In this document: positions 10,260 through 58,718 of the stretch, one piece after another
Position numbering within the stretch: position 1 is the stretch's first letter
Layout: every line of letters starts with the position of its first letter
Source: Fidelibacterota bacterium
GTDB taxonomy: Bacteria > Fidelibacterota > Marinisomatia > SCGC-AAA003-L08 > GCA-002704045
NCBI GenBank assembly: GCA_002703375.1
Contig: NZTO01000049.1
Span: 38,901 to 102,900, forward strand
Direction of reading: 5' to 3'
Length of the DNA stretch: 64,000 nt
The notes under the pieces: model-generated
The model's input: the letters and a program-made list of their open reading frames with translations, nothing else
Told to the model about the DNA's origin: nothing
Database searches by the model: none
Position numbers and translations under genes: made by a program

Positions 10260-11243
10260 ATGCGAGGATTGGTATTTATGGCAATTATTATGTCATCATA
10301 CAGTGATATTGTTGAGAAGCAAGATCTGTACAGCGATTTTATGGATTATTCAGCCAGGTACAACAGAACTTATCAAACGTATAGTCAATACAAAAATGCA
10401 TTTCATAGATTTTCTAAAAATATAGAATATATTAACAACAACAATTTTCCATTTAAATTAGATAGAAATGAGTATATGGATATGTCATTTGACTATTTTC
10501 ATTTGGTCAAGAAAGGATATGTAAAAAAGTTAAGCACTAGCAGTAGCAGCAGCAGTAGTTGTAGTAAATATAAGTATGAAAATAAGGAACTACCCGATTC
10601 TCTGGATTGGAGAGATGTAAATGCGGTAACTCCGGTTAAAAATCAGGGTCAATGTGGAAGTTGTTGGAGTTTTTCCGCAACCGGGGCGATGGAGGGTGCA
10701 TGGGCGATTAAAAACGAGGAGTTAGTGAGTTTGTCAGAGCAACTTTTAATGGATTGTTCTGTAGATTACGGAGACTATTCTTGTAATGGTGGAGAGATGG
10801 AATCGGCGTTTGAATTTGCGATTGATAATGGTATGTGTAGTGAAGAACAAGAGCCTTATCTAGCAAAAGATGAAGATTGTATGTACTGTAATCCGCAGAT
10901 ATATTTTAGTGATTGTGTTAGGGTAACTCCAAAGAATGAAATTCATTTAAAGGAGGCTGTTTCTAGGGGTCCGGTATCTGTAGCGATTCAAGCCGATACT
11001 AAAACATTTCAGTTTTATTCCGGGGGGATAATATCAGGAGATTCATGTGGTACGAATTTGGATCATGGAGTACTAATTGTAGGATACGGGGAAGAAGATG
11101 GGGAGAAATATTGGATAGTTAAAAACAGTTGGGGTGCATCGTGGGGGGAAAATGGTTATGTTAGAATTTCAAGAAGCGATGAAGAAAATACGCATGGTGT
11201 ATGTGGTATTGCGATGCAGCCATCTTATCCGGTGGCTTATTAA
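10260..11243 (+). CDS. papain-family (C1A) cysteine protease, cathepsin-L-like with propeptide
   Basis: Catalytic Cys motif QGQCGSCWSFSATGAMEGAW, His motif LDHGVLIVGYG, Asn/Trp motif WIVKNSWGASWGENGY. An I29-like propeptide lies upstream and a poly-Ser tract sits in the linker. Confidence 0.92.
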   Translation: MRGLVFMAIIMSSYSDIVEKQDLYSDFMDYSARYNRTYQTYSQYKNAFHRFSKNIEYINNNNFPFKLDRNEYMDMSFDYFHLVKKGYVKKLSTSSSSSSSCSKYKYENKELPDSLDWRDVNAVTPVKNQGQCGSCWSFSATGAMEGAWAIKNEELVSLSEQLLMDCSVDYGDYSCNGGEMESAFEFAIDNGMCSEEQEPYLAKDEDCMYCNPQIYFSDCVRVTPKNEIHLKEAVSRGPVSVAIQADTKTFQFYSGGIISGDSCGTNLDHGVLIVGYGEEDGEKYWIVKNSWGASWGENGYVRISRSDEENTHGVCGIAMQPSYPVAY

Positions 11244-29116: not shown

Positions 29117-29872
29117 CTATATAATCTCGTCGACCAACCCAAACCCTAAACACGTTTCTGCATCTAACCATAAATCTTTCTGCAATAAGTAATTTAAATG
29201 AGCAGATTTTAATTTCGTACGATTTAAATAAATATTTCCTATGATGTTCATCAATACCCCCATATTTGTCATCTGATCCTGGAGTTCATTGTATTTTCCC
29301 GAATCCGTACCAGATAATTGATGTATTAACATTAAAGAATTTTTTGTCATGTACCTCTTCTTACCCACCACACTTATCAATGTTGCCGCACTCGCCGCAA
29401 AACCATCGATATAAGTATATACAGGTGTTTTAAGATTTTGAATTACATCTAATACATATAATGTATGATACAAACTACCTCCCTGACTTTGAATATGCAA
29501 ATGAATTGGTGGTGGTTTTATTTTATACTGTAAATGAAATATTTGCGATTTCACATCTAAGTCATTTAACCTATTTTTTAACTCATAACAACTTCTTTGG
29601 GAAACCGGACCGTAAAAATATATTTCATTATTAATATCGTGGATTATTCCTACCTCTCCACTTACCACATCTTCATTTAAAAATATCTTTTTCTGTATGT
29701 CACTCTCCTTTTTAATATACGGTTCGCGCTTTACAATATCCGCAGATTCATCCTTATTTGTATTGAACGAAGAAGTCATCCCGATAAAACTACCTAAAGC
29801 TTGCCGACGATTTATCGAAAAACTGTCGGACCCCAAAAAAAGCACTGTTAAAAGTACTTGCTTTAAATACAT
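29117..29872 (-). CDS. clpP: ClpP-family (S14) serine protease with N-terminal presequence
   Basis: Collinear with ClpP: IQSQGGSLYHTLYVLDVIQ (INSPGGS-like), catalytic Ser in DGFAASAATLI, catalytic His in LMLIHQLSG, Asp region KDLWLDAETCLGFGLVDEII. About 90 aa precede the core, starting with the hydrophobic MYLKQVLLTVLFLG. Confidence 0.8.
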   Translation of the reverse strand: MYLKQVLLTVLFLGSDSFSINRRQALGSFIGMTSSFNTNKDESADIVKREPYIKKESDIQKKIFLNEDVVSGEVGIIHDINNEIYFYGPVSQRSCYELKNRLNDLDVKSQIFHLQYKIKPPPIHLHIQSQGGSLYHTLYVLDVIQNLKTPVYTYIDGFAASAATLISVVGKKRYMTKNSLMLIHQLSGTDSGKYNELQDQMTNMGVLMNIIGNIYLNRTKLKSAHLNYLLQKDLWLDAETCLGFGLVDEII

Positions 29873-29902
29873 TTATATATATATATATAAAGGTATTTAA
29901 AA

Positions 29903-34284: not shown

Positions 34285-37200
34285 ATGTCGGAGAGTTCAA
34301 TACAAATCCAATTAAATGATATAATTCAAATAAATTCACCAGAAAATCCAGTTTTTCATAATAAAATCTTCATTGTTATCTATGCAAGTGAAAGTAAGAT
34401 CAAGATAATAGATTCTCCTGTAAATTTTTTAGAAACGAAGGAAGATTCTTTTCAAGAATTTAATTTACCAATCGAAGATGGTAATTTATTAGATCCAACC
34501 ATAGAAAGTATTGACTTATTAAGTAGAGATGATAATCCTGGATTTGCGATGCAAAATAATTTAACCCCGAACACATGGATTGATATAACTTTTAGCGAAG
34601 AAATACCATCTATCATTACTGGAGAGATTACTAATTTAGAAGAAGATATGATTGAAATAAAAATATATCCTTCCAATAAGGTTATTTACATTGATTTTAA
34701 ATATCAGGGTATACCCGATGATTTACCTATAAAAAGTATTTTAATCCGCGAAAAACCAAAAGAAACAATACTTGATACTACATCAAGGGCTGAATTGGGA
34801 GTATCGCAGCAGGAAGGTGTTAATCTGGATGAGGAAGAGGAAAAGGCCAAAGGAGAAGATGACAAGAGTGAGGAGGGTGACGAGAGTAATGAAATAGAAC
34901 CGGAAGAATCAAAAATAGTATTGGTCGAGTTGGATCAAGTAATATTAGAAGGAGATGCAATACAATTTGGTGAAGAACTTGGAGAGATTTATCAAGAAGT
35001 CACCGTAGACGAGGCAAATAAAAGATATTCAATAGACAGCCAAACAAATGATTTGATGGATGATATGATTTCCAGAATACCTACTAGAGAGAGAACACCA
35101 GAAGTTCTTAACTATTTACATTTGCAAATAAATCGTTTCATAGAACTACGTAAGGAGTTTTCCAAGTTCGATGAAAATGGAAATGCAAATATGCCAAATT
35201 ATAAAGGAGTTAATAATAAACCACTTATCACAGAACTGAAAGATTTCAAAAAGAAGATACCATGGTTAATACCAGTCGCTAAAAATAAGAGAAAGATATA
35301 TCACGGTGAAACAAATGAAACGTCTATTACCGGGGAAAAAATATACGCCCCTCTAACGGATGAAGAATATAATGAAATGGACATACAAAATAAATTAATA
35401 TCAGATGAAAATTTAAATGAAAATAATTATTTAAAACAATACCGTAATGACAAACAAAACACATTTAATTATAATGAACAACGCTATAAAACATTAGTTA
35501 AAAGGGTAACTAGTTTATACACACCATTTAATAAAACCGAAAATAATCATGATATTATATACGAAGCAGAAGTACAATCTTTGTTAAATGTTTTAATAAA
35601 CAATCAGGAAGATTACGATTCATTTGCCGTAAAAGATATGAATATTAAAAAAACTAAATTTCTTATGCAAAATTATGTTCCATCTATAGACCTAATTAGA
35701 ATGGATGCATTGAATAATACATATAAAGTAAGTATATCTAATAAGGATACATTGCAACTATTATCTTTTATGATGTTACCAAAAAATGTAATGAAATACT
35801 CAAAGGCCTTTTTACATGAATCCAATATCCTAGAAAAAATGGAATTAAATTCAAATCCATTTTATTACTATAAATTATTAAATAAACATACCGCACCAAA
35901 TACAATAGATATTAATAGTTTTGAAAATAAAAAAAATTACGATAAAGTAAAATTCTTATCTACCATAACAGAATTTACATTAGATTCATCCATACAAGAT
36001 GAAGATAAATACGATAAATTTTTGAACACTATTGTTCCAAAAATAAAAGACCTATTTTTATACACAAAAAATTTTATCGATGGATATTCCGTAAGAGCAA
36101 TTATAAAAGAAATGGAACCATTCCACGTTTATGGTGAAGACATAACATATCGACAATACGAAGAGTTTAGAACATTTTTAAAACTACAAATCATTGAATA
36201 TAAAAAAAATTTTGTGCAAAAATCCAAGGATTTCAAAAAAATACACCCTCGAAACGATAAACAAGAAGTACATCCTTTACCATTAGCCGTTAGTAACATA
36301 AAACACCCGCTTAATGATAAACTAATGGATTCATATGTATACGAAGAATTATATAATGTCACTACAAATAAAGATTCGACCGCTGAAATCATAAAAAAAT
36401 TAATGATAGATAGTTTTCAAATGGCCAGTAATTCAAATACTTATGGAAACTTGGAATTATTTGGTATAATAGATATCGAAACCGAAATTAAATCTCTCGA
36501 GAATCAATTCTTGGAAGAAAAAAAAGAAGAGGAAGCAAAGGATGATTGCGGTGTGTTCGTTCTTGGGAAAAAGTACGAAGATTATGATGAATTACTGGAA
36601 GATAATGATCGAGATATATATTTCGATAAAAGTTATGATACAACAATATACGACATAATAGATAATTACAAAGAACAACAACAAACTATGGATAAAGATC
36701 AATTTAACATATTCTTAATTGAAGAATTGAAAAAAAATATCGGTCTTTCGGCAGAAAAAGCGAGAGATGATGCCGAGGCTATGATATTAGGTAAACGCCC
36801 GGTAAAAGAAGGGAATTATGCAATGTTAATAAATAGGGGCGATTCAGAGGATGAAAACGATCAATCCTTTTTCCGCCGAGTAAATAATAAATGGGAAAGA
36901 GACGAAGCAATGAAAGGAATATATGCAGATAATCAAAAAATATTCTGTAATATGAAATCCACCTGCTTCCAAATAAATAATGTTTGTAGTTCTAATGAAA
37001 CCGCAGAAAATGAACTAAAGCAAAATGCAATTAAGTACATATTAAATGAATTTGATAAAAGACTAGAATTGGGTATTGATGAAATAACAGATAAAATTAA
37101 AAGAAACATACAAGAAAATGAAAGAATGCTAAAAGCCAAAATACAAATAGAAAAATTTCATTTGCTTAAACATAATAATTTCAAATTTATGCTCGGTGGT

Positions 37201-40200
37201 AATGTAGAAGACATACAAATAAAACAATCCCCATATGAAAAACTTAAAAACTTAATACTGGGTCATAATAATTTCTCCGAAAAACAAAACTATATTTTGA
37301 TATTCTGCAATAAATTTACAAGAGAAAACATTCATGGTGAAAACAATTACTGGTTATACTGTAAGGATTCAAATATAAAATTACTGCCTATATTTTTACA
37401 TAAATTAGCAGTGGCTTATTTTGATGGTACTTATGATTCAAAAATAGAAGAGATATGTAAAAATCAAGGAGAAATAAGTGACGATGAATCTTATTGGGTT
37501 GACCGTCATAGTGGATATTACATAAAAAATATAAGTTACAGCACAGATATGGGTTATGATGAAAGTGGATACGCAATAAAAACTAGCGATATTTTAGAGG
37601 ATGAAAAAGAAATTCTCTTAGACAGCCCAAAACAGGATATAGACCCCATAAATATCAGTATTGACAACATAATAAATGCAATATCAAGTAATACAAGAAT
37701 ATTTATAGAAGGATATCGCGATTTTATAAAAAAGCATGTTAGTGCTTTACTTCCTAAAATAATAAATGAAACCATCTATGAAAAACTAAAGGTCCTCGCA
37801 GAAAAAAAGAATAAAAAAATTCAATCCTATGAGTTATCTGTCAATAAATCACTTATGATTCTAACCTTATCATTTATACACATATCTATCCAGATTTCAA
37901 TTCCACCGGTTTTGACCAGAAATTCTTTTCCAGGATGTGTCAAATCCTTTTCCGGATATCCTTTAGATGGAGACAGCGATTACGGAGGTATAGAATATAT
38001 AGCATGCGTTGCATCTAAAATGAAAAGTTCCAGTTCCCCATGGAATGGTATAAATAAAATGAAAGAAGTTGTTATTACTAGAGAAATTAAAAATTCTATT
38101 GAGAAATACATTATTAATTTACCAACTGTAATATCAAAATTAGAAGAAAAAACAGAATACCTATCAAAACCAGAGAATCAAGAAATACCCGTAAGTGTGA
38201 ATTTTAAAAAATGGATAAATTTCCTCCCACCTCTACAATCGGTACAAATACCCCGAGTAGATAATATAAGTAATGCATTTATACAATCATTCAAAGAAAA
38301 TATGAGAAAGGGCTCAGAAAAACAACACGAACAATATTTAACCTTATACTCAAAAGCAAAAATGCTTACCATGGAAATTATCAAATTTATACAAAATATT
38401 ATCAATTCAAAATCACCCGTACTTACCAATAATTTACTAGAACCCTTTTTAGAAAATGCTTGTTGTAATGATGGATTAGTTCAAGCCTATAATTATTTTA
38501 TAAACGAAAATAAATCTATTCATGACAATAATACACAGATTCTATTCATAGAAAATATACTATACGATTATAATAATTTTTACACGGCACCAATGATGTT
38601 AGATTTAACGAACACAAAAATGTCAATAGTTAATACAAGTGAATATACGGAAGAATTGATATACAAAACATTTATACACTACGGTAATTTAAATAACGAA
38701 GACCCAATCCCTAAAGAATTGGAAATATTCTTCAGTGAAAAACCCGAAGAAATGAAGGACTATAAAAATTTAAAAGAACAAATAGAATTTTTGAAAGAAA
38801 ATGGTAAAAATTTTACGTATGAGAGTTTTATGGACCTACTTAAACTACTATCAAATAATATTCCTCCGGAATATTCTATTAAAACCACACATTATCAAAG
38901 ACTAGATGACCTTCTAAACTTTATTATAGATAATGAACAAAACATCCCCCCCCCCTTCACCAATGGCCTATTGAATTTATTGAAAAATCCGGAAAATAAA
39001 ATGACGGAAAATGACAATGAACTGCAAATGTTTAAAGAATATCTATATAAAAGTAGCACTGAATTAATGGAATCAATTCGATTGTTCCTAACTAGATATT
39101 CATCAACTACTAAAAAGAAAGTAAATGAAACCGTTGATTTTTTAATGAATTTAAATATTTGGAAACCGTTAAACGAAACGATTCCAAATAATGACCATGA
39201 TTACAGCAGAATATTTAGTTTCATGCATGATTTTGTAGATAAATTTTTTATCGTTTTCCCACAAATGATCAAAACAAATAATAAAAACACTAATATATCA
39301 ATACCAAACCATTGGAATATGACCTATTCCGGAAAGAAAAGCATAGAATCTTTGATAGAAATGTATTATTCAAAATTAAATAAGTACATGAATAATGAAA
39401 CTATCATATCACTCTTTCAATCTTTTCCAGATGAGATTGAACTCTACATAAAAATACTTGGAGAGATTCAATTCAAATTAGGAAATTTCATTGAAACTGG
39501 TTCCGATGTCATCTACGAATTTAAAACTTTTGACAAAAATCTTTGTGTATTGATTCATAAGTACGTTATTACTAGTTTAATATATGAGATGACTAATATA
39601 CCAGATGTTGAAAAATTTGAATTTAAACTAGGTAGAAAAGAGTTAGTAGAAACGACGACATCTGTTTCTTTAGAATCGGATTCGCTAAAATTAGAAGAAA
39701 TGGATTTCGAAGAAGATGTGCCAAATACAAATAAAGAGTTAATTGCAAATTATATTATAGATTCATGCTCTATATTTTCAATCACTAAAAAAAAAGTACT
39801 AAACTTTAGCCTGCAAGATATCAAAAAGAAAGTTAACGTCGAAAAAGAAAAGGAAAAACGTTACGAATTCACGGACAAATTAGCAAACATGGATAATGAA
39901 GAACGAGAATTAAATAACTTATTTAAAACTAGTAATCTGGGTGATTGGGGAAAAGGTAAGGAGAAGGGAATAACACAATATCAAAAAGATTTTTTTGATG
40001 CAGAAGTAAAAGATCGTGAGAAAAGAATAATGATTGAACGTAATTTAGCAAATAATCCAAATGTTACCGAAATGAATATAAATATTTTTGCCTTAGAATA
40101 CGAAGAAGAACAAGCCGCTGAGGAACAAATAGAACATGATGCATTTAATATGGAAGATATTCCAGATGATGGTGATGCCGGAGAAAATGACTATTTTGAA

Positions 40201-40218
40201 TATGATGGCGGAAAGTAA
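34285..40218 (+). CDS. very large hypothetical protein (1977 aa)
   Basis: Single uninterrupted 5.9-kb ORF. I saw no P-loop or polymerase motifs. It has acidic tracts near both ends and Cys-containing blocks (FPGCVKSFSGYPLDGDSDYGGIEYIACVASK, LENACCNDG). Confidence 0.7.
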   Translation: MSESSIQIQLNDIIQINSPENPVFHNKIFIVIYASESKIKIIDSPVNFLETKEDSFQEFNLPIEDGNLLDPTIESIDLLSRDDNPGFAMQNNLTPNTWIDITFSEEIPSIITGEITNLEEDMIEIKIYPSNKVIYIDFKYQGIPDDLPIKSILIREKPKETILDTTSRAELGVSQQEGVNLDEEEEKAKGEDDKSEEGDESNEIEPEESKIVLVELDQVILEGDAIQFGEELGEIYQEVTVDEANKRYSIDSQTNDLMDDMISRIPTRERTPEVLNYLHLQINRFIELRKEFSKFDENGNANMPNYKGVNNKPLITELKDFKKKIPWLIPVAKNKRKIYHGETNETSITGEKIYAPLTDEEYNEMDIQNKLISDENLNENNYLKQYRNDKQNTFNYNEQRYKTLVKRVTSLYTPFNKTENNHDIIYEAEVQSLLNVLINNQEDYDSFAVKDMNIKKTKFLMQNYVPSIDLIRMDALNNTYKVSISNKDTLQLLSFMMLPKNVMKYSKAFLHESNILEKMELNSNPFYYYKLLNKHTAPNTIDINSFENKKNYDKVKFLSTITEFTLDSSIQDEDKYDKFLNTIVPKIKDLFLYTKNFIDGYSVRAIIKEMEPFHVYGEDITYRQYEEFRTFLKLQIIEYKKNFVQKSKDFKKIHPRNDKQEVHPLPLAVSNIKHPLNDKLMDSYVYEELYNVTTNKDSTAEIIKKLMIDSFQMASNSNTYGNLELFGIIDIETEIKSLENQFLEEKKEEEAKDDCGVFVLGKKYEDYDELLEDNDRDIYFDKSYDTTIYDIIDNYKEQQQTMDKDQFNIFLIEELKKNIGLSAEKARDDAEAMILGKRPVKEGNYAMLINRGDSEDENDQSFFRRVNNKWERDEAMKGIYADNQKIFCNMKSTCFQINNVCSSNETAENELKQNAIKYILNEFDKRLELGIDEITDKIKRNIQENERMLKAKIQIEKFHLLKHNNFKFMLGGNVEDIQIKQSPYEKLKNLILGHNNFSEKQNYILIFCNKFTRENIHGENNYWLYCKDSNIKLLPIFLHKLAVAYFDGTYDSKIEEICKNQGEISDDESYWVDRHSGYYIKNISYSTDMGYDESGYAIKTSDILEDEKEILLDSPKQDIDPINISIDNIINAISSNTRIFIEGYRDFIKKHVSALLPKIINETIYEKLKVLAEKKNKKIQSYELSVNKSLMILTLSFIHISIQISIPPVLTRNSFPGCVKSFSGYPLDGDSDYGGIEYIACVASKMKSSSSPWNGINKMKEVVITREIKNSIEKYIINLPTVISKLEEKTEYLSKPENQEIPVSVNFKKWINFLPPLQSVQIPRVDNISNAFIQSFKENMRKGSEKQHEQYLTLYSKAKMLTMEIIKFIQNIINSKSPVLTNNLLEPFLENACCNDGLVQAYNYFINENKSIHDNNTQILFIENILYDYNNFYTAPMMLDLTNTKMSIVNTSEYTEELIYKTFIHYGNLNNEDPIPKELEIFFSEKPEEMKDYKNLKEQIEFLKENGKNFTYESFMDLLKLLSNNIPPEYSIKTTHYQRLDDLLNFIIDNEQNIPPPFTNGLLNLLKNPENKMTENDNELQMFKEYLYKSSTELMESIRLFLTRYSSTTKKKVNETVDFLMNLNIWKPLNETIPNNDHDYSRIFSFMHDFVDKFFIVFPQMIKTNNKNTNISIPNHWNMTYSGKKSIESLIEMYYSKLNKYMNNETIISLFQSFPDEIELYIKILGEIQFKLGNFIETGSDVIYEFKTFDKNLCVLIHKYVITSLIYEMTNIPDVEKFEFKLGRKELVETTTSVSLESDSLKLEEMDFEEDVPNTNKELIANYIIDSCSIFSITKKKVLNFSLQDIKKKVNVEKEKEKRYEFTDKLANMDNEERELNNLFKTSNLGDWGKGKEKGITQYQKDFFDAEVKDREKRIMIERNLANNPNVTEMNINIFALEYEEEQAAEEQIEHDAFNMEDIPDDGDAGENDYFEYDGGK

Positions 40219-43926: not shown

Positions 43927-44169
43927 ATGTTTATAAAACGGATCCTTTATTCAAAATATAGTTCTTTAATACTATCAGTTATACTTGGATTTGGACTAGC
44001 AACATTATTTAGAATGGGATGTAAAGGTAATAATTGTAATATATTTAAAGCCCCAGAAGATTTAAAGGATGAAAATAAAATTTATAAAATTAACGATAAG
44101 TGTTATAAGGCTGTAGCGACACCCATAGATTGTGATAATAATAAAAAAACATTAGAATTTTTTGCGTAA
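43927..44169 (+). CDS. small single-TM Cys-containing protein (80 aa)
   Basis: N-terminal TM helix followed by a Cys-containing ectodomain. Confidence 0.45.
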   Translation: MFIKRILYSKYSSLILSVILGFGLATLFRMGCKGNNCNIFKAPEDLKDENKIYKINDKCYKAVATPIDCDNNKKTLEFFA

Positions 44170-46272: not shown

Positions 46273-46686
46273 TTAAATCTTTTCAATTATAATCCCCGCC
46301 ATTTCCATGATTTCCGGTATCAATTCATCGTTCTTATAATCTTCTATGTAGTAAATATTTTTTATTCCGGAAGCACACAATATCTTTGTGCAGTTAATGC
46401 AAGGATAATGCGTTATGTAAGCCTCTGCTTTGTCGCAACTAACACCGCGTTTGGCACAGTCTGTTATCGCATTTTGCTCGGCATGAATCGTGGCTTGTTC
46501 ATGATTGTTTCTAACAAAAGATTTATGGGGACATCCGGGAAGAAATCCATTATATCCCTGAGATATAATGCGGTTATCTTTTACAATAACACAACCCACT
46601 TTTAATCTCTCACACGGCGAACGTTTTGAAGTTACTAATACTATTTCCTTAAAATAATCTCTCCAACTTGGTCGTTTATTTTCCAT
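46273..46686 (-). CDS. dCMP (deoxycytidylate) deaminase
   Basis: N-terminal WRDYF, zinc motifs HAEQNAI and PCINCTKIL, and a size typical of ComEB/dCMP deaminases. Confidence 0.85.
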   Translation of the reverse strand: MENKRPSWRDYFKEIVLVTSKRSPCERLKVGCVIVKDNRIISQGYNGFLPGCPHKSFVRNNHEQATIHAEQNAITDCAKRGVSCDKAEAYITHYPCINCTKILCASGIKNIYYIEDYKNDELIPEIMEMAGIIIEKI

Positions 46687-47207
46687 TGTACATTAATCCT
46701 ACGTATTTTTTTAATTATTTTCTTACACTTAATTGTAATCGTATTTCTACAACAGCCGTATTCTGTTGCTATCTTATTTACCGGTATTTTATAAATATAA
46801 CGCTTCAAAATCAAATTCTTTTCAAATTCGGTTAATCCGCTTAAAAGATAATCATAGTTTTCAAAATCTTCTGTTATAATTAAATTTTCTTCTTTTAGTG
46901 GCAATGGTTTATTATACAGGGTTCTTATGTAGTCTCCCATATATTTTTTTATCCATCTACTACTATAAGTAGAAAATGCAAATCCCTTTGTTTCGTTATA
47001 TTTACGGGCCGCGTACAAAAGACCGATAGAACCCTCCTGAATCAACTCCTTTTTTTCATCGAGATTTAACCTATTTTTTATCATGTACGACCTAGCAAAG
47101 TAAGGAACCAATCGATAATTGTTTCTCGCATAACTCCTTATCATTTCCGGGGAATTATAACTTGATACAGAATATAATATACTTGATAAAATAATAAAAC
47201 GGTACAT
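46641..47207 (-). CDS. sigma-70 family RNA polymerase sigma factor (regions 2 and 4 only)
   Basis: NYRLVPYFARSY...ELIQEGSIGLLYAARKYNETKGFAFSTYSSRWIKKYM aligns residue-by-residue with RpoD region 2 (NLRLVISIAKKY...[37 protein letters not shown]). The C-terminal LTEFEKNLILKRYIYKIPVNKIATEYGCCRNTITIKCKKIIKKIRR matches the region 4 HTH layout. The first about 15 aa are hydrophobic. Confidence 0.85.
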   Translation of the reverse strand: MYRFIILSSILYSVSSYNSPEMIRSYARNNYRLVPYFARSYMIKNRLNLDEKKELIQEGSIGLLYAARKYNETKGFAFSTYSSRWIKKYMGDYIRTLYNKPLPLKEENLIITEDFENYDYLLSGLTEFEKNLILKRYIYKIPVNKIATEYGCCRNTITIKCKKIIKKIRRINVQWKINDQVGEIILRK

Positions 47208-57690: not shown

Positions 57691-57754
57691 ATATTAATTT
57701 ATCATATTAATTTATCATATTAATTTATCATATTAATTTATCATATTAATTTTA
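57691..57754. repeat. 13-nt AT-rich tandem repeat (atattaatttatc), about 4.9 copies
   Basis: Perfect copies start at 57691, 57704, 57717 and 57730, with a partial copy at 57743. The repeat spans the stop codon of the AAA ATPase gene and lies upstream of gmd. Confidence 0.9.
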
Positions 57755-58718
57755 TTTTTGAATTTAATTCAAATGTTACATGTAATCTTCCCTTTCTTAA
57801 ATAAGAGACATCAAGATTGTCTAATTCTCTTTTTGTTCTATTGCTACATAAAATAACAATCAAATTTGGATAAAGCCCCATATCTATTTTATCAAAAAAA
57901 AGATTCCAACTGGGTTTATCAGATATTTGAATAGGATACTTTTTATGTTTTAATATACGATTTTCATACACATTTTGAATAATGTTGTCTACCTCATCCA
58001 GCAAAATAATTAAAGGCTCATCATTTGTAGGTGCGATTTTCGAATATAAATTCGCAAGAGATTCACCAGGTTCCGTAGGATTAAACGAATCACAAAAACA
58101 AGCAGATAACGATTTCGCAAGTAAATAAGATAACATTGTCTTACCAGAGCCAGGCTTTCCATAAATAAAACACGTCAAAAATCCCTTTCTCTTGAAGTTC
58201 TCCGTAATTGAATTAGAAATCACTCTCTGTTCTTGTGTATACTCTTTATCTATAATAACTTTCCTTGACGTGTAAAAAAAATATTCATAATTACCACCTC
58301 GTGTATAATATTTGATTTCGTTATTTATTTTTTTTTCTTCAACGCTATGTGGTATATTTTTTTGTATTTTTACTGAATTAGATGCTGAAATCAACCTTTC
58401 TTTCACACTTTCTGTGCAAAATATAGACATTGTTCTTTCATAATCATCTCCATATACCCATATAATATATCTAGGAATCCACGCCTTATTGATAATTAAT
58501 CCAATTGGATTACCTTGTTCTGTATAACTAGAACAAAAATCACTTTTTATATTATTTGAGATATAATTCGCATTCTCTTCACTTTTCATGCGATACATAT
58601 TTATTTTTAATAAAATGGAAACTAAAAACATAACATATGGACCTGTTATATTAATAAAATTTTGTGACATAGATAAAACTCCCAAAATTATAGCAAATCC
58701 ATAGTTATTATCTAGCAT
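57741..58718 (-). CDS. AAA-family ATPase with N-terminal membrane anchor
   Basis: Walker A IYGKPGSGKTML, Walker B PLIILLDEVD, sensor-1 ILCSNR, and LRKGRLHV (Arg-finger region). Two N-terminal hydrophobic helices give a BCS1-like layout. Confidence 0.75.
   Translation of the reverse strand: MLDNNYGFAIILGVLSMSQNFINITGPYVMFLVSILLKINMYRMKSEENANYISNNIKSDFCSSYTEQGNPIGLIINKAWIPRYIIWVYGDDYERTMSIFCTESVKERLISASNSVKIQKNIPHSVEEKKINNEIKYYTRGGNYEYFFYTSRKVIIDKEYTQEQRVISNSITENFKRKGFLTCFIYGKPGSGKTMLSYLLAKSLSACFCDSFNPTEPGESLANLYSKIAPTNDEPLIILLDEVDNIIQNVYENRILKHKKYPIQISDKPSWNLFFDKIDMGLYPNLIVILCSNRTKRELDNLDVSYLRKGRLHVTFELNSKIKLI

Follow-up and report, generated by a model that had tools for sequence, protein, structure and literature searches.

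The window analyzed here, the whole 64,000-nucleotide stretch at positions 38,901-102,900 of contig NZTO01000049.1 (assembly GCA_002703375.1, deposited as Fidelibacterota bacterium), is a fragment of a giant-virus (nucleocytoplasmic large DNA virus, NCLDV) genome with a GC content of ~30%. It encodes a major capsid protein, VLTF3, an A32-type packaging ATPase, the catalytic subunit of poly(A) polymerase and the RNA polymerase subunit Rpb3/11, together with asparagine synthase, ubiquitin and GDP-mannose dehydratase. Flanked by the asparagine synthase and Rpb3/11 genes lies the gene for a ClpP-like serine protease, whose N-terminal presequence resembles the import signals of complex red-lineage plastids; a second gene encodes a sigma-70-family factor that also begins with a hydrophobic leader. 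The interval singled out in the initial annotation, 29693..29872, corresponds to the first 60 codons of the protease open reading frame (ORF), whose start codon is the first to follow a stop, with no in-frame ATG further upstream. The features of the two genes, with the evidence for each in brackets (ER, endoplasmic reticulum; RR, twin arginine; pLDDT, predicted local distance difference test), are:

29117..29872, minus strand: gene for the ClpP-like serine protease (ORF, 251 aa including the presequence)
29822..29872, minus strand: residues 1-17, MYLKQVLLTVLFLGSDS, predicted ER-type signal peptide (translation, orthologue columns)
29819..29821, minus strand: Phe18, position +1 after the predicted signal-peptidase site (orthologue counts, codon conservation)
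29753..29821, minus strand: residues 18-40, FSINRRQALGSFIGMTSSFNTNK, acid-free, +3, Ser/Thr-rich, transit-peptide-like domain (orthologue composition)
29804..29809, minus strand: twin arginine Arg22-Arg23 (RR-anchored orthologue columns)
29648..29752, minus strand: residues 41-75, acidic/polar linker of variable length (alignment gaps, pLDDT)
29117..29647, minus strand: residues 76-251 plus the stop codon, ClpP-fold catalytic core (pLDDT, triad, Foldseek)
29390-29392, minus strand: Ser161 (catalytic triad)
29321-29323, minus strand: His184 (catalytic triad)
29174-29176, minus strand: Asp233 (catalytic triad)
46641..47207, minus strand: sigma-70-family factor with region 2 and region 4, 188 aa (Pfam, PHROG)
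47160..47207, minus strand: residues 1-16 of the sigma factor, leader MYRFIILSSILYSVSS, followed by Tyr17 (orthologue N-termini)

Translation confirms the N-terminal pattern quoted for the protease in the initial annotation: the protein begins with MYLKQVLLTVLFLGSDS, continues with FSINRRQALGSFIGMTSSFNTNK and then reads DES. Residues 1-17 combine Lys4 in the n-region, an h-region of 8-10 residues composed of Leu, Phe, Ile and Val, and a Ser-Asp-Ser c-region; signal-peptide and cleavage-site calls, here and below, follow our own crude rules. Residues 18-40 hold a Tat-like (Tat, twin-arginine translocation) N-R-R-x-Φ-L sequence, Φ being a hydrophobic residue, plus a weakly hydrophobic stretch rich in Gly, Ser and Thr, and the uncharged run after the twin arginine extends over 16 residues. 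Within it, I-G↓M31 (the arrow marks cleavage) is a candidate stromal-processing site of the Φ-small↓Met type, use of which would leave a transit peptide of 13 residues.

The remainder of the protein is a ClpP-type protease. The Pfam CLP_protease profile matches residues 107-251 over profile positions 33-179 (E=1.1e-27, 97.5 bits against a cut-off of 20.2), and Ser161, His184 and Asp233, invariant in an 86-sequence alignment, coincide in a phmmer alignment with the AAS, IHQ and RD motifs of human ClpP. In an AlphaFold (AF2) model built on the 86-sequence alignment, residues 76-251 reach a pLDDT above 90, and the best Foldseek match is E. faecium ClpP (6cfd, E=2.8e-14, root-mean-square deviation of 1.2 Å over 173 columns). 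Residues 1-75 have low pLDDT, with short helices only at residues 3-13, where the prediction is of low confidence, and 22-27; the linker (residues 41-75, pLDDT ~45-65) contains 36% gaps in the alignment and shows high entropy. This contrast in pLDDT (low up to residue 75, above 90 from residue 76 on) places the leader outside the fold, to which the first 75 residues are, as modeled, an appendage. The viral protein thus shares with the ClpP S14 family the fold, the invariant Ser-His-Asp triad and an above-threshold Pfam match, and differs from it by the 75-residue N-terminal extension and by a Pfam match that begins only at profile position 33. Structurally, residues 76-87 are modeled as a β-hairpin (two β-strands), in the place taken in canonical ClpP by the gating loops and the first helix.

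The best PHROG for the viral ClpP is PHROG 94, ‘head maturation protease’ (1.6e-39), with residues 81-251 aligned to positions 80-250 of a 622-position profile; unlike the phage head-maturation proteases, the viral protein has no scaffold domain. Its predicted signal peptide, moreover, argues against a role in the capsid interior. No gene for a Clp-type unfoldase was found in the window, where the sole AAA-family gene (57741..58718, minus strand) encodes an ATPase of 325 aa with two N-terminal hydrophobic segments that is not a Clp-type unfoldase by Pfam. Nor is any similarity to the N-terminal part of canonical ClpP recognizable in the core, and the enzyme may therefore be a stand-alone peptidase that needs no ATPase partner.

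Homologues were collected with a word-indexed search of 5.8 billion proteins, which returned 2219 homologues, and with an exhaustive search of 1.84 billion cluster representatives, which returned 16649 matches at E<=0.001. The best 120 of the 2219 homologues are ~210-250 aa long, all derive from marine metagenomes, and nearly all have the same N-terminal design; the Phe, the RR pair and the flanking positions are kept in ~90 distinct orthologue N-termini down to ~55% identity. Two separate tallies describe this design, one anchored on RR (82 distinct N-termini) and one based on a simple cleavage-site rule (89 distinct N-termini). In the RR-anchored columns, an h-region rich in Leu, Phe and Ile is followed by Ser, Thr, Ala, Cys or Val at position -3 (70/82) and by Ser, Gly or Ala at position -1 (71/82). 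Position +1 is Phe in 63 of the 82, with Leu and Tyr also occurring, position +2 is Ser, position +3 is hydrophobic and position +4 is Asn, Ser or Gln, the residue immediately before the twin arginine being one of these three in 67/82. The pair itself is RR in 80/82 and RK in 2/82. After it come a polar residue, a hydrophobic residue, Leu (58/82), G/N, G/S, two hydrophobic residues, G/T/S and Met (43/82), and then polar and acidic residues. The cleavage-site rule gives a median leader length of 17 aa, with Phe (68), Leu (18) or Tyr (3) at +1 in the 89 N-termini; the distance from +1 to the start of RR is 4 residues in 71/89 and 6 in 15/89. The stretch that follows is acid-free over a median of 20 aa and carries a mean charge of +2.4, Asp and Glu making up 2% of the first 20 residues after the Phe versus 18.6% of the next 35. 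This leader pattern is far beyond chance.

Comparison at the codon level bears on how the leader is maintained. Over codons 17-27 (S-F-S-I-N-R-R-Q-A-L-G), the window gene and a 74%-identical orthologue on the IMG/VR contig L010 differ by 6 synonymous and 0 non-synonymous changes. The Phe18 codon, TTT, is the same in L010 and L011, and the twin arginine is encoded by CGT CGG in the window, by CGC CGC in L010 and L011, and by AGA CGA in L012. The exclusively synonymous changes are direct evidence that selection acts on the peptide, not on the DNA, and that the upstream start is used. The linker, unlike the conserved leader, varies in both length and sequence. The hydrophobic signal-peptide core, the small-residue site with an aromatic residue after it, and the RR pair with its mildly hydrophobic stretch, all of which had been described from the window alone, are thus real and under selection, as the orthologue columns and codons 17-27 attest.

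The design corresponds in most respects to the bipartite signals of complex red plastids. In diatoms, haptophytes and cryptophytes, Phe, Trp, Tyr or Leu at +1 is generally taken to mark proteins whose import proceeds past the periplastidial compartment (PMC3774753). Diatom transit peptides mapped by N-terminomics are 12-42 aa long (mean 20), have a net charge of +2.6, contain <1% Asp and Glu and 32% Ser and Thr, and carry their basic residues mid-peptide; their processing site has an aliphatic or hydrophobic residue at -2, a small or amidated residue at -1 and Met, Ala or Ser at P1', and the mature protein starts with an acidic region (PMC3774753). By our own rules, the viral leader comprises an ER signal peptide, a residue of the F/W/Y/L class at +1 and a transit-peptide-like domain. 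As in the algal signals, a small-x-small site precedes Phe, and the transit part is depleted in acidic residues, positively charged and hydroxylated over ~14-23 aa. The twin arginine lies mid-stretch, and the conserved Φ-Φ-(G/T/S)-Met columns provide a candidate Φ-small↓Met site that is followed by an acidic mature N-terminus. The viral version differs in being virus-encoded rather than nucleus-encoded and in reading S-x-S↓F-S in place of the ‘ASAFAP’ motif, A-x-A↓F-A-P. Furthermore, its transit part is conserved in sequence, down to the twin arginine, whereas host transit peptides are conserved in composition only.

The specificity of this pattern was assessed with one crude rule set on 1470 non-overlapping ORFs from the window and 80 IMG/VR giant-virus loci (of 352 contigs encoding relatives), the IMG/VR relatives being genomes of uncultured giant viruses assembled from metagenomes (GVMAGs). 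An aromatic residue at +1 followed by a basic, acid-poor stretch was found in 20 of the 39 signal-peptide-like ClpP ORFs versus 9 of the 161 other signal-peptide-like ORFs (odds ratio 17.8; Fisher p=1.6e-10, a value that overstates the independence of phylogenetically related sequences). Among signal-peptide-like ORFs, the leader pattern is specific to the viral ClpP. In the window and its 20-kb flanks, the sole ORF passing the rule besides ClpP and the sigma factor encodes 80 aa (43927..44169); it was rejected as a further leader-bearing protein, since the hydrophobic leader, 21 residues long, resembles a membrane anchor more than it does a signal peptide. A signal-peptide-bearing cysteine protease of the papain family (10260..11243, plus strand; Peptidase_C1, 5.4e-75) has Tyr after its predicted site and then turns acidic immediately, without the ClpP-type design.

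Two further observations concern genes near viral ClpP genes elsewhere. On virus-like contigs of 59% GC, a Peptidase_C1 gene lies at most 1 kb from the ClpP-like gene (L005 4819..5775; L006 1679..2635), and the two proteases may travel together. On two GVMAG contigs, a 182-aa multi-pass membrane protein is encoded 4 kb from the ClpP gene (L014 5362..5910; L016 5248..5796). It starts with MKLKGLVCLTLITSVVS followed by YQRPMLQQYYK..., a signal peptide, Tyr and a basic stretch, and is possibly a further plastid-directed viral protein; our impression that it might be a carotenoid oxygenase was dropped, as it has no Pfam match.

The sigma factor of the window carries the other leader. It matches Pfam Sigma70_r2 (2e-11), Sigma70_r4 weakly (0.0046) and PHROG 351, a phage sigma factor (2.5e-22), and it is rare, with 9 matches in 5.8 billion proteins, 4 of them virus-like. 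Its nearest cellular matches are bacterial sigma factors, ~40% identical. In a set of five orthologues, for which the true ORFs were read on two IMG/VR contigs, a 16-18-residue hydrophobic leader with a small-residue site is present in 5/5, followed by Tyr in 4/5 and His in 1/5; the N-termini include MYRFIILSSILYSVSS followed by YNSPEMIR, MTLLHIMISIILPFFTHC followed by YNSPEMTR and MMKYGFVMFMYFISSTYS followed by YNSPQQIQ. The sigma orthologues share contigs with the closest ClpP orthologues (L008 with L010, L009 with L011). The initial annotation had seen in this N-terminus an echo of the ClpP presequence, and the hydrophobic leader followed by Tyr bears this out; the likeness ends there, as the sigma factor has no RR module and carries Glu at +5.

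The bacterial-type polymerase known from algae is the plastid-encoded RNA polymerase. The sigma factor could act only on a polymerase of this type, and a sigma factor that is secreted or held in the ER makes no sense. It therefore supports plastid routing, with a weight that comes from this logic and not from its motif. The sigma gene overlaps the downstream dCMP deaminase gene (46273..46686, minus strand) by 46 nt; the sigma-then-deaminase order is kept in L008 and L009, where the sigma factor is 13 residues shorter and the two genes abut.

On balance, we consider the leader of the viral ClpP to be probably, though by no means securely, an import signal for a complex plastid of the red lineage, bipartite or tripartite in a compressed form. 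Plastid import is the claim made here with this moderate confidence; the protein would either stop in the stroma or continue via Tat into the thylakoid lumen. From the features of the sequence, their conservation and the fold, we infer the host type, the role of the protease and the following transport steps. Residues 1-17 would act as a cleavable ER signal peptide and direct the co-translational entry of the viral ClpP into the ER. Cleavage by signal peptidase after Ser17 would expose Phe18, with which the protein would move onward from the lumen of the ER or chloroplast-ER across the inner plastid membranes. The next 14-23 residues, acid-free, rich in Ser, Thr and Gly and with the two arginines as their sole positive charges, would play the part of the transit peptide, which would be unusually short, and the cargo would consist of the acidic linker together with the ClpP core (residues 76-251) and its intact triad. 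The same short stretch being Tat-like, it might also carry the protein onward to the thylakoid lumen, as a ‘compressed tripartite’ signal. Once inside, the protease, possibly acting alone, may degrade plastid proteins during infection. The ER-to-plastid routing that the initial annotation had put forward as speculative has gained from the region after the Phe, whose length, charge and acid depletion match the mapped diatom transit peptides, and it remains an argument from sequence.

Several observations weigh against plastid import. The Ser and Thr content of the viral stretch, its single mismatch with the diatom transit peptides, is 19% versus 32%. The presence of a complex red plastid is deduced from the signal itself, which is partly circular. 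Only 3 residues separate the Phe from the twin arginine, a spacing shorter than in described tripartite signals. The sigma factor not only departs from the ClpP leader after its Tyr; its region 2 starts ~11 residues after that residue, which leaves almost no room for a transit peptide. Furthermore, the sister subclades P0107-P0116 and L020/L021 possess no more than a signal peptide, after which acidic residues and the core follow, and a large, more distant group lacks a hydrophobic leader (97 of 150 cluster representatives, 30 of 61 IMG/VR ORFs). Judging from these subclades, different viruses evidently use the protease module in different compartments. Orthologues devoid of the extension had been named at the outset as the observation to look for: the close clade passes, with >100 orthologues that keep the extension, and the distant subclades show either a signal peptide alone or no leader. 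The leaderless sister group (P0198, P0205 and others; L048-L061) consists of proteins of ~200-220 aa with a charged N-terminus, for example MTRYYWCDDKTKEKIEEE, encoded on IMG/VR contigs of 30-190 kb.

The main rival is a plain secretory or endomembrane fate, which is the null expectation and which we regard as unlikely, though less so than any other alternative to plastid import. The protease would then end up in the ER lumen, in the secretory pathway or at the membranes of the virus factory, and the FSxNRRxΦL... segment would act as a pro-peptide, provide a dibasic (Kex2-like) processing site or mediate membrane association. Taken by itself, the leader is indeed a generic signal peptide, RR is a classical dibasic processing site, the sister clades just described place the core directly after a signal peptide, and the same virus encodes other hydrolases with signal peptides, such as the papain-like protease. 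Such a fate leaves unexplained, however, why Phe, Leu or Tyr occupies +1 in 89/89 N-termini, why 20 acid-free residues precede 35 that are 18.6% acidic, and why Φ-Leu-Gly-Gly-Φ-Φ-small-Met is conserved after the twin arginine. Nor does a secretory role seem conceivable for the co-resident sigma factor, which has the same kind of leader.

Nested within plastid import is the version in which the RR module is a true Tat signal. The folded protease would pass from the stroma into the thylakoid lumen, crossing five membranes in all, and would there attack lumenal proteins such as those of photosystem II; we hold both the route and this target to be doubtful. The twin arginine is near-invariant in a Z-R-R-x-Φ-Φ context (Z, polar), preceded by a polar residue and followed, two residues on, by Φ-Leu, and 5/7 positions agree with S/T-R-R-x-F-L-K. 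The uncharged run behind it has a median of 14 residues and reaches at least 13 in 58 of 87 orthologues. This second hydrophobic stretch has a hydropathy of 1.37 versus 2.06 for the signal-peptide core, and a weaker hydrophobicity of this kind is typical of Tat signals. The tatC gene is encoded in red-lineage plastid genomes. As in bacterial and thylakoid Tat signals, the viral leader thus joins the motif and its preceding polar residue to a ~14-residue uncharged, weakly hydrophobic h-region; unlike them, it places a strongly hydrophobic ER-type leader rather than a polar n-region before the RR, has Gly at the consensus Lys position and lacks an AxA c-region.

The absence of AxA from the window clade, in which the stretch ends ...GMTSSF, GMNAL or SMTAL with Met at -3, counts against the lumen in particular. 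Moreover, a separate transit peptide between the signal-peptide site and RR is absent from the window clade, so that, with 3 residues between Phe and RR, the same residues must double as transit peptide and Tat signal. In the distant homologues P0171, P0177 and P0194, RR gives way to KK or a K-rich stretch, which points to charge rather than Arg identity, and the Φ-small-Met columns are equally well explained as a stromal-processing site. We know of no lumenal ClpP. The Tat profiles (Pfam TAT_signal PF10518 and NCBIfam) gave no match at E<=10 to 10 N-termini, a search in which the TorA and plant OE23 controls also gave none and SufI gave E=0.018, so that this negative carries no weight. The Tat-like layout proposed in the initial annotation accordingly stands for RR-x-Φ-L and the uncharged stretch; it falls short at the 3-residue gap and the missing AxA, and a short stromal transit peptide with a Φ-small↓Met site accounts for the same residues.

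More divergent homologues recovered by the exhaustive search come closer to a lumenal signal. In these, 7-24 residues separate the aromatic residue from RR or a KK/K-rich stretch, and the second hydrophobic unit often ends in AxA, as it does, at least approximately, in P0295, P0171, P0194 and P0187. The N-terminus of P0295 reads MRHAATAILWSVVVLSADA, LLIPRRTLLAGGIATPALAGRIARPAFA and then ETE, its first unit ending ...SADA. A precedent exists in cryptophytes, where phycoerythrin alpha subunits carry a signal peptide, AXA↓F/Y, a transit peptide and an RR lumen-targeting domain with a hydrophobic core and AXA (PMC5784005, which credits the tripartite presequence to Gould et al. 2007). The viral leader shares with this presequence the ER signal peptide, the aromatic +1 and RR with a hydrophobic core, and the divergent viral homologues share the AxA. 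It departs from the precedent in having, in most orthologues, a 3-residue spacer between +1 and RR in place of a distinct transit peptide, in its cargo, a ClpP-fold protease, and, in the window clade, in the missing AxA.

A reading of the second hydrophobic stretch as a membrane anchor or stop-transfer segment, which would make the protein a type I membrane protein or give it a dinoflagellate/euglenid ‘class I’ presequence that travels via vesicles, is highly improbable. It can point to two consecutive hydrophobic segments and to a paper whose title reports a relative of this virus family infecting a dinoflagellate (PMC12338748). Across 87 orthologues, however, the best 19-residue hydropathy window after the RR scores 0.12 in the median and 0.82 at most, against ~1.6 usual for a transmembrane helix, and the stretch itself is only ~11-14 residues long and rich in Gly, Ser and Thr; a transmembrane anchor is rejected on hydropathy. 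An artefact, whether a wrong start codon or untranslated sequence, is next to impossible for an ORF that runs from the first ATG after a stop, keeps its leader in >100 orthologues, changes only synonymously across the motif and has the same gene model in five independent assemblies. PEXEL/RxLR-type and D-box readings of RRxΦL were discarded, since either the spacing (RxLxE/Q/D) or the compartment does not fit.

Combining the two genes leads to a broader proposal, which we put forward tentatively: a marine giant-virus clade may fit a ClpP-fold protease and a sigma-70-family factor with host-style topogenic signals, so that both would enter a complex plastid through its four (or five) membranes and would give the virus control over plastid proteolysis and over transcription by the plastid-encoded RNA polymerase. 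If this is correct, plastid proteolysis and plastid transcription are direct viral targets, the sigma factor is a eukaryotic-virus counterpart, inside an organelle, of the sigma factors encoded by phages, and import signals for an organelle, the complex plastid, have arisen in or been captured by viruses. The combination of a signal peptide, Phe and a basic acid-free stretch would then also serve as a sequence-only marker that predicts uncultured giant viruses of red-plastid algae.

Giant viruses of algae carry genes for products expected to act in the chloroplast, and the route by which these would enter it has mostly gone unaddressed. The plastid auxiliary genes of such viruses (light-harvesting complex (LHC) and Psb/Psa proteins; haem oxygenase, PcyA and RPE in prasinoviruses) likewise encode products presumed to act in the plastid. 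These are photosynthetic or metabolic enzymes, and the cases considered here are reported without an N-terminal targeting extension or detected transit peptide, whereas the putative signal on the viral ClpP, a protease accompanied by a sigma factor, is explicit, long and conserved, its design being kept across hundreds of environmental viruses. A literature search of 8 million full texts found no report of such a plastid signal on a giant-virus protein or of the targeting of ClpP or sigma factors in giant viruses, and no paper combining ASAFind with giant viruses; nor did a giant-virus review contain any of the terms looked for. The type of signal is known for host nuclear genes; its apparent occurrence on a virus-encoded ClpP-fold protease, together with a leader-bearing sigma factor, would be new.

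As to the origin of the protease, profile scores place the viral core nearer to phage ClpP-like proteases than to organellar ClpP. The search for a host gene found no cellular homologue with the same leader design and identified no algal homologue. The GC-rich homologue P0295, with its textbook RR...AFA unit, and its relative P0324 were considered as cellular genes and ruled out: both lie on gene-dense, intron-less, virus-like contigs that carry DUF5871, D12/N6_N4 methyltransferases and a papain-like protease. The likeliest origin, to judge from these comparisons, is a bacterial or phage protease that gained a host-type leader within the virus lineage.

Several further observations concern the wider context of the window. 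The window is part of a 138-kb Tara Oceans metagenome contig, and near-identical copies of it occur in several independent marine assemblies. The sigma-factor protein P0160 (100% identical) is listed at NCBI under the title ‘MAG: hypothetical protein CMF80_07110 [Candidatus Marinimicrobia bacterium]’; the giant-virus contig thus appears to have ended up in a bacterial metagenome-assembled genome (MAG) through mis-binning. Upstream of the ClpP start codon, an AT-rich spacer of 30 nt separates the gene from the asparagine synthase stop codon and contains a perfect (TA)8 run (29874..29889). A 1977-aa ORF without a Pfam match (34285..40218, plus strand) is kept at full length in related assemblies. 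Genes of the same virus that lie outside the window code for a bacterial-type aconitase (AcnB domains) and for a glutamine-fructose-6-phosphate amidotransferase (L090 21145..22094, L092 12046..13869); the virus also encodes a ribonucleotide reductase and a deoxynucleoside kinase.

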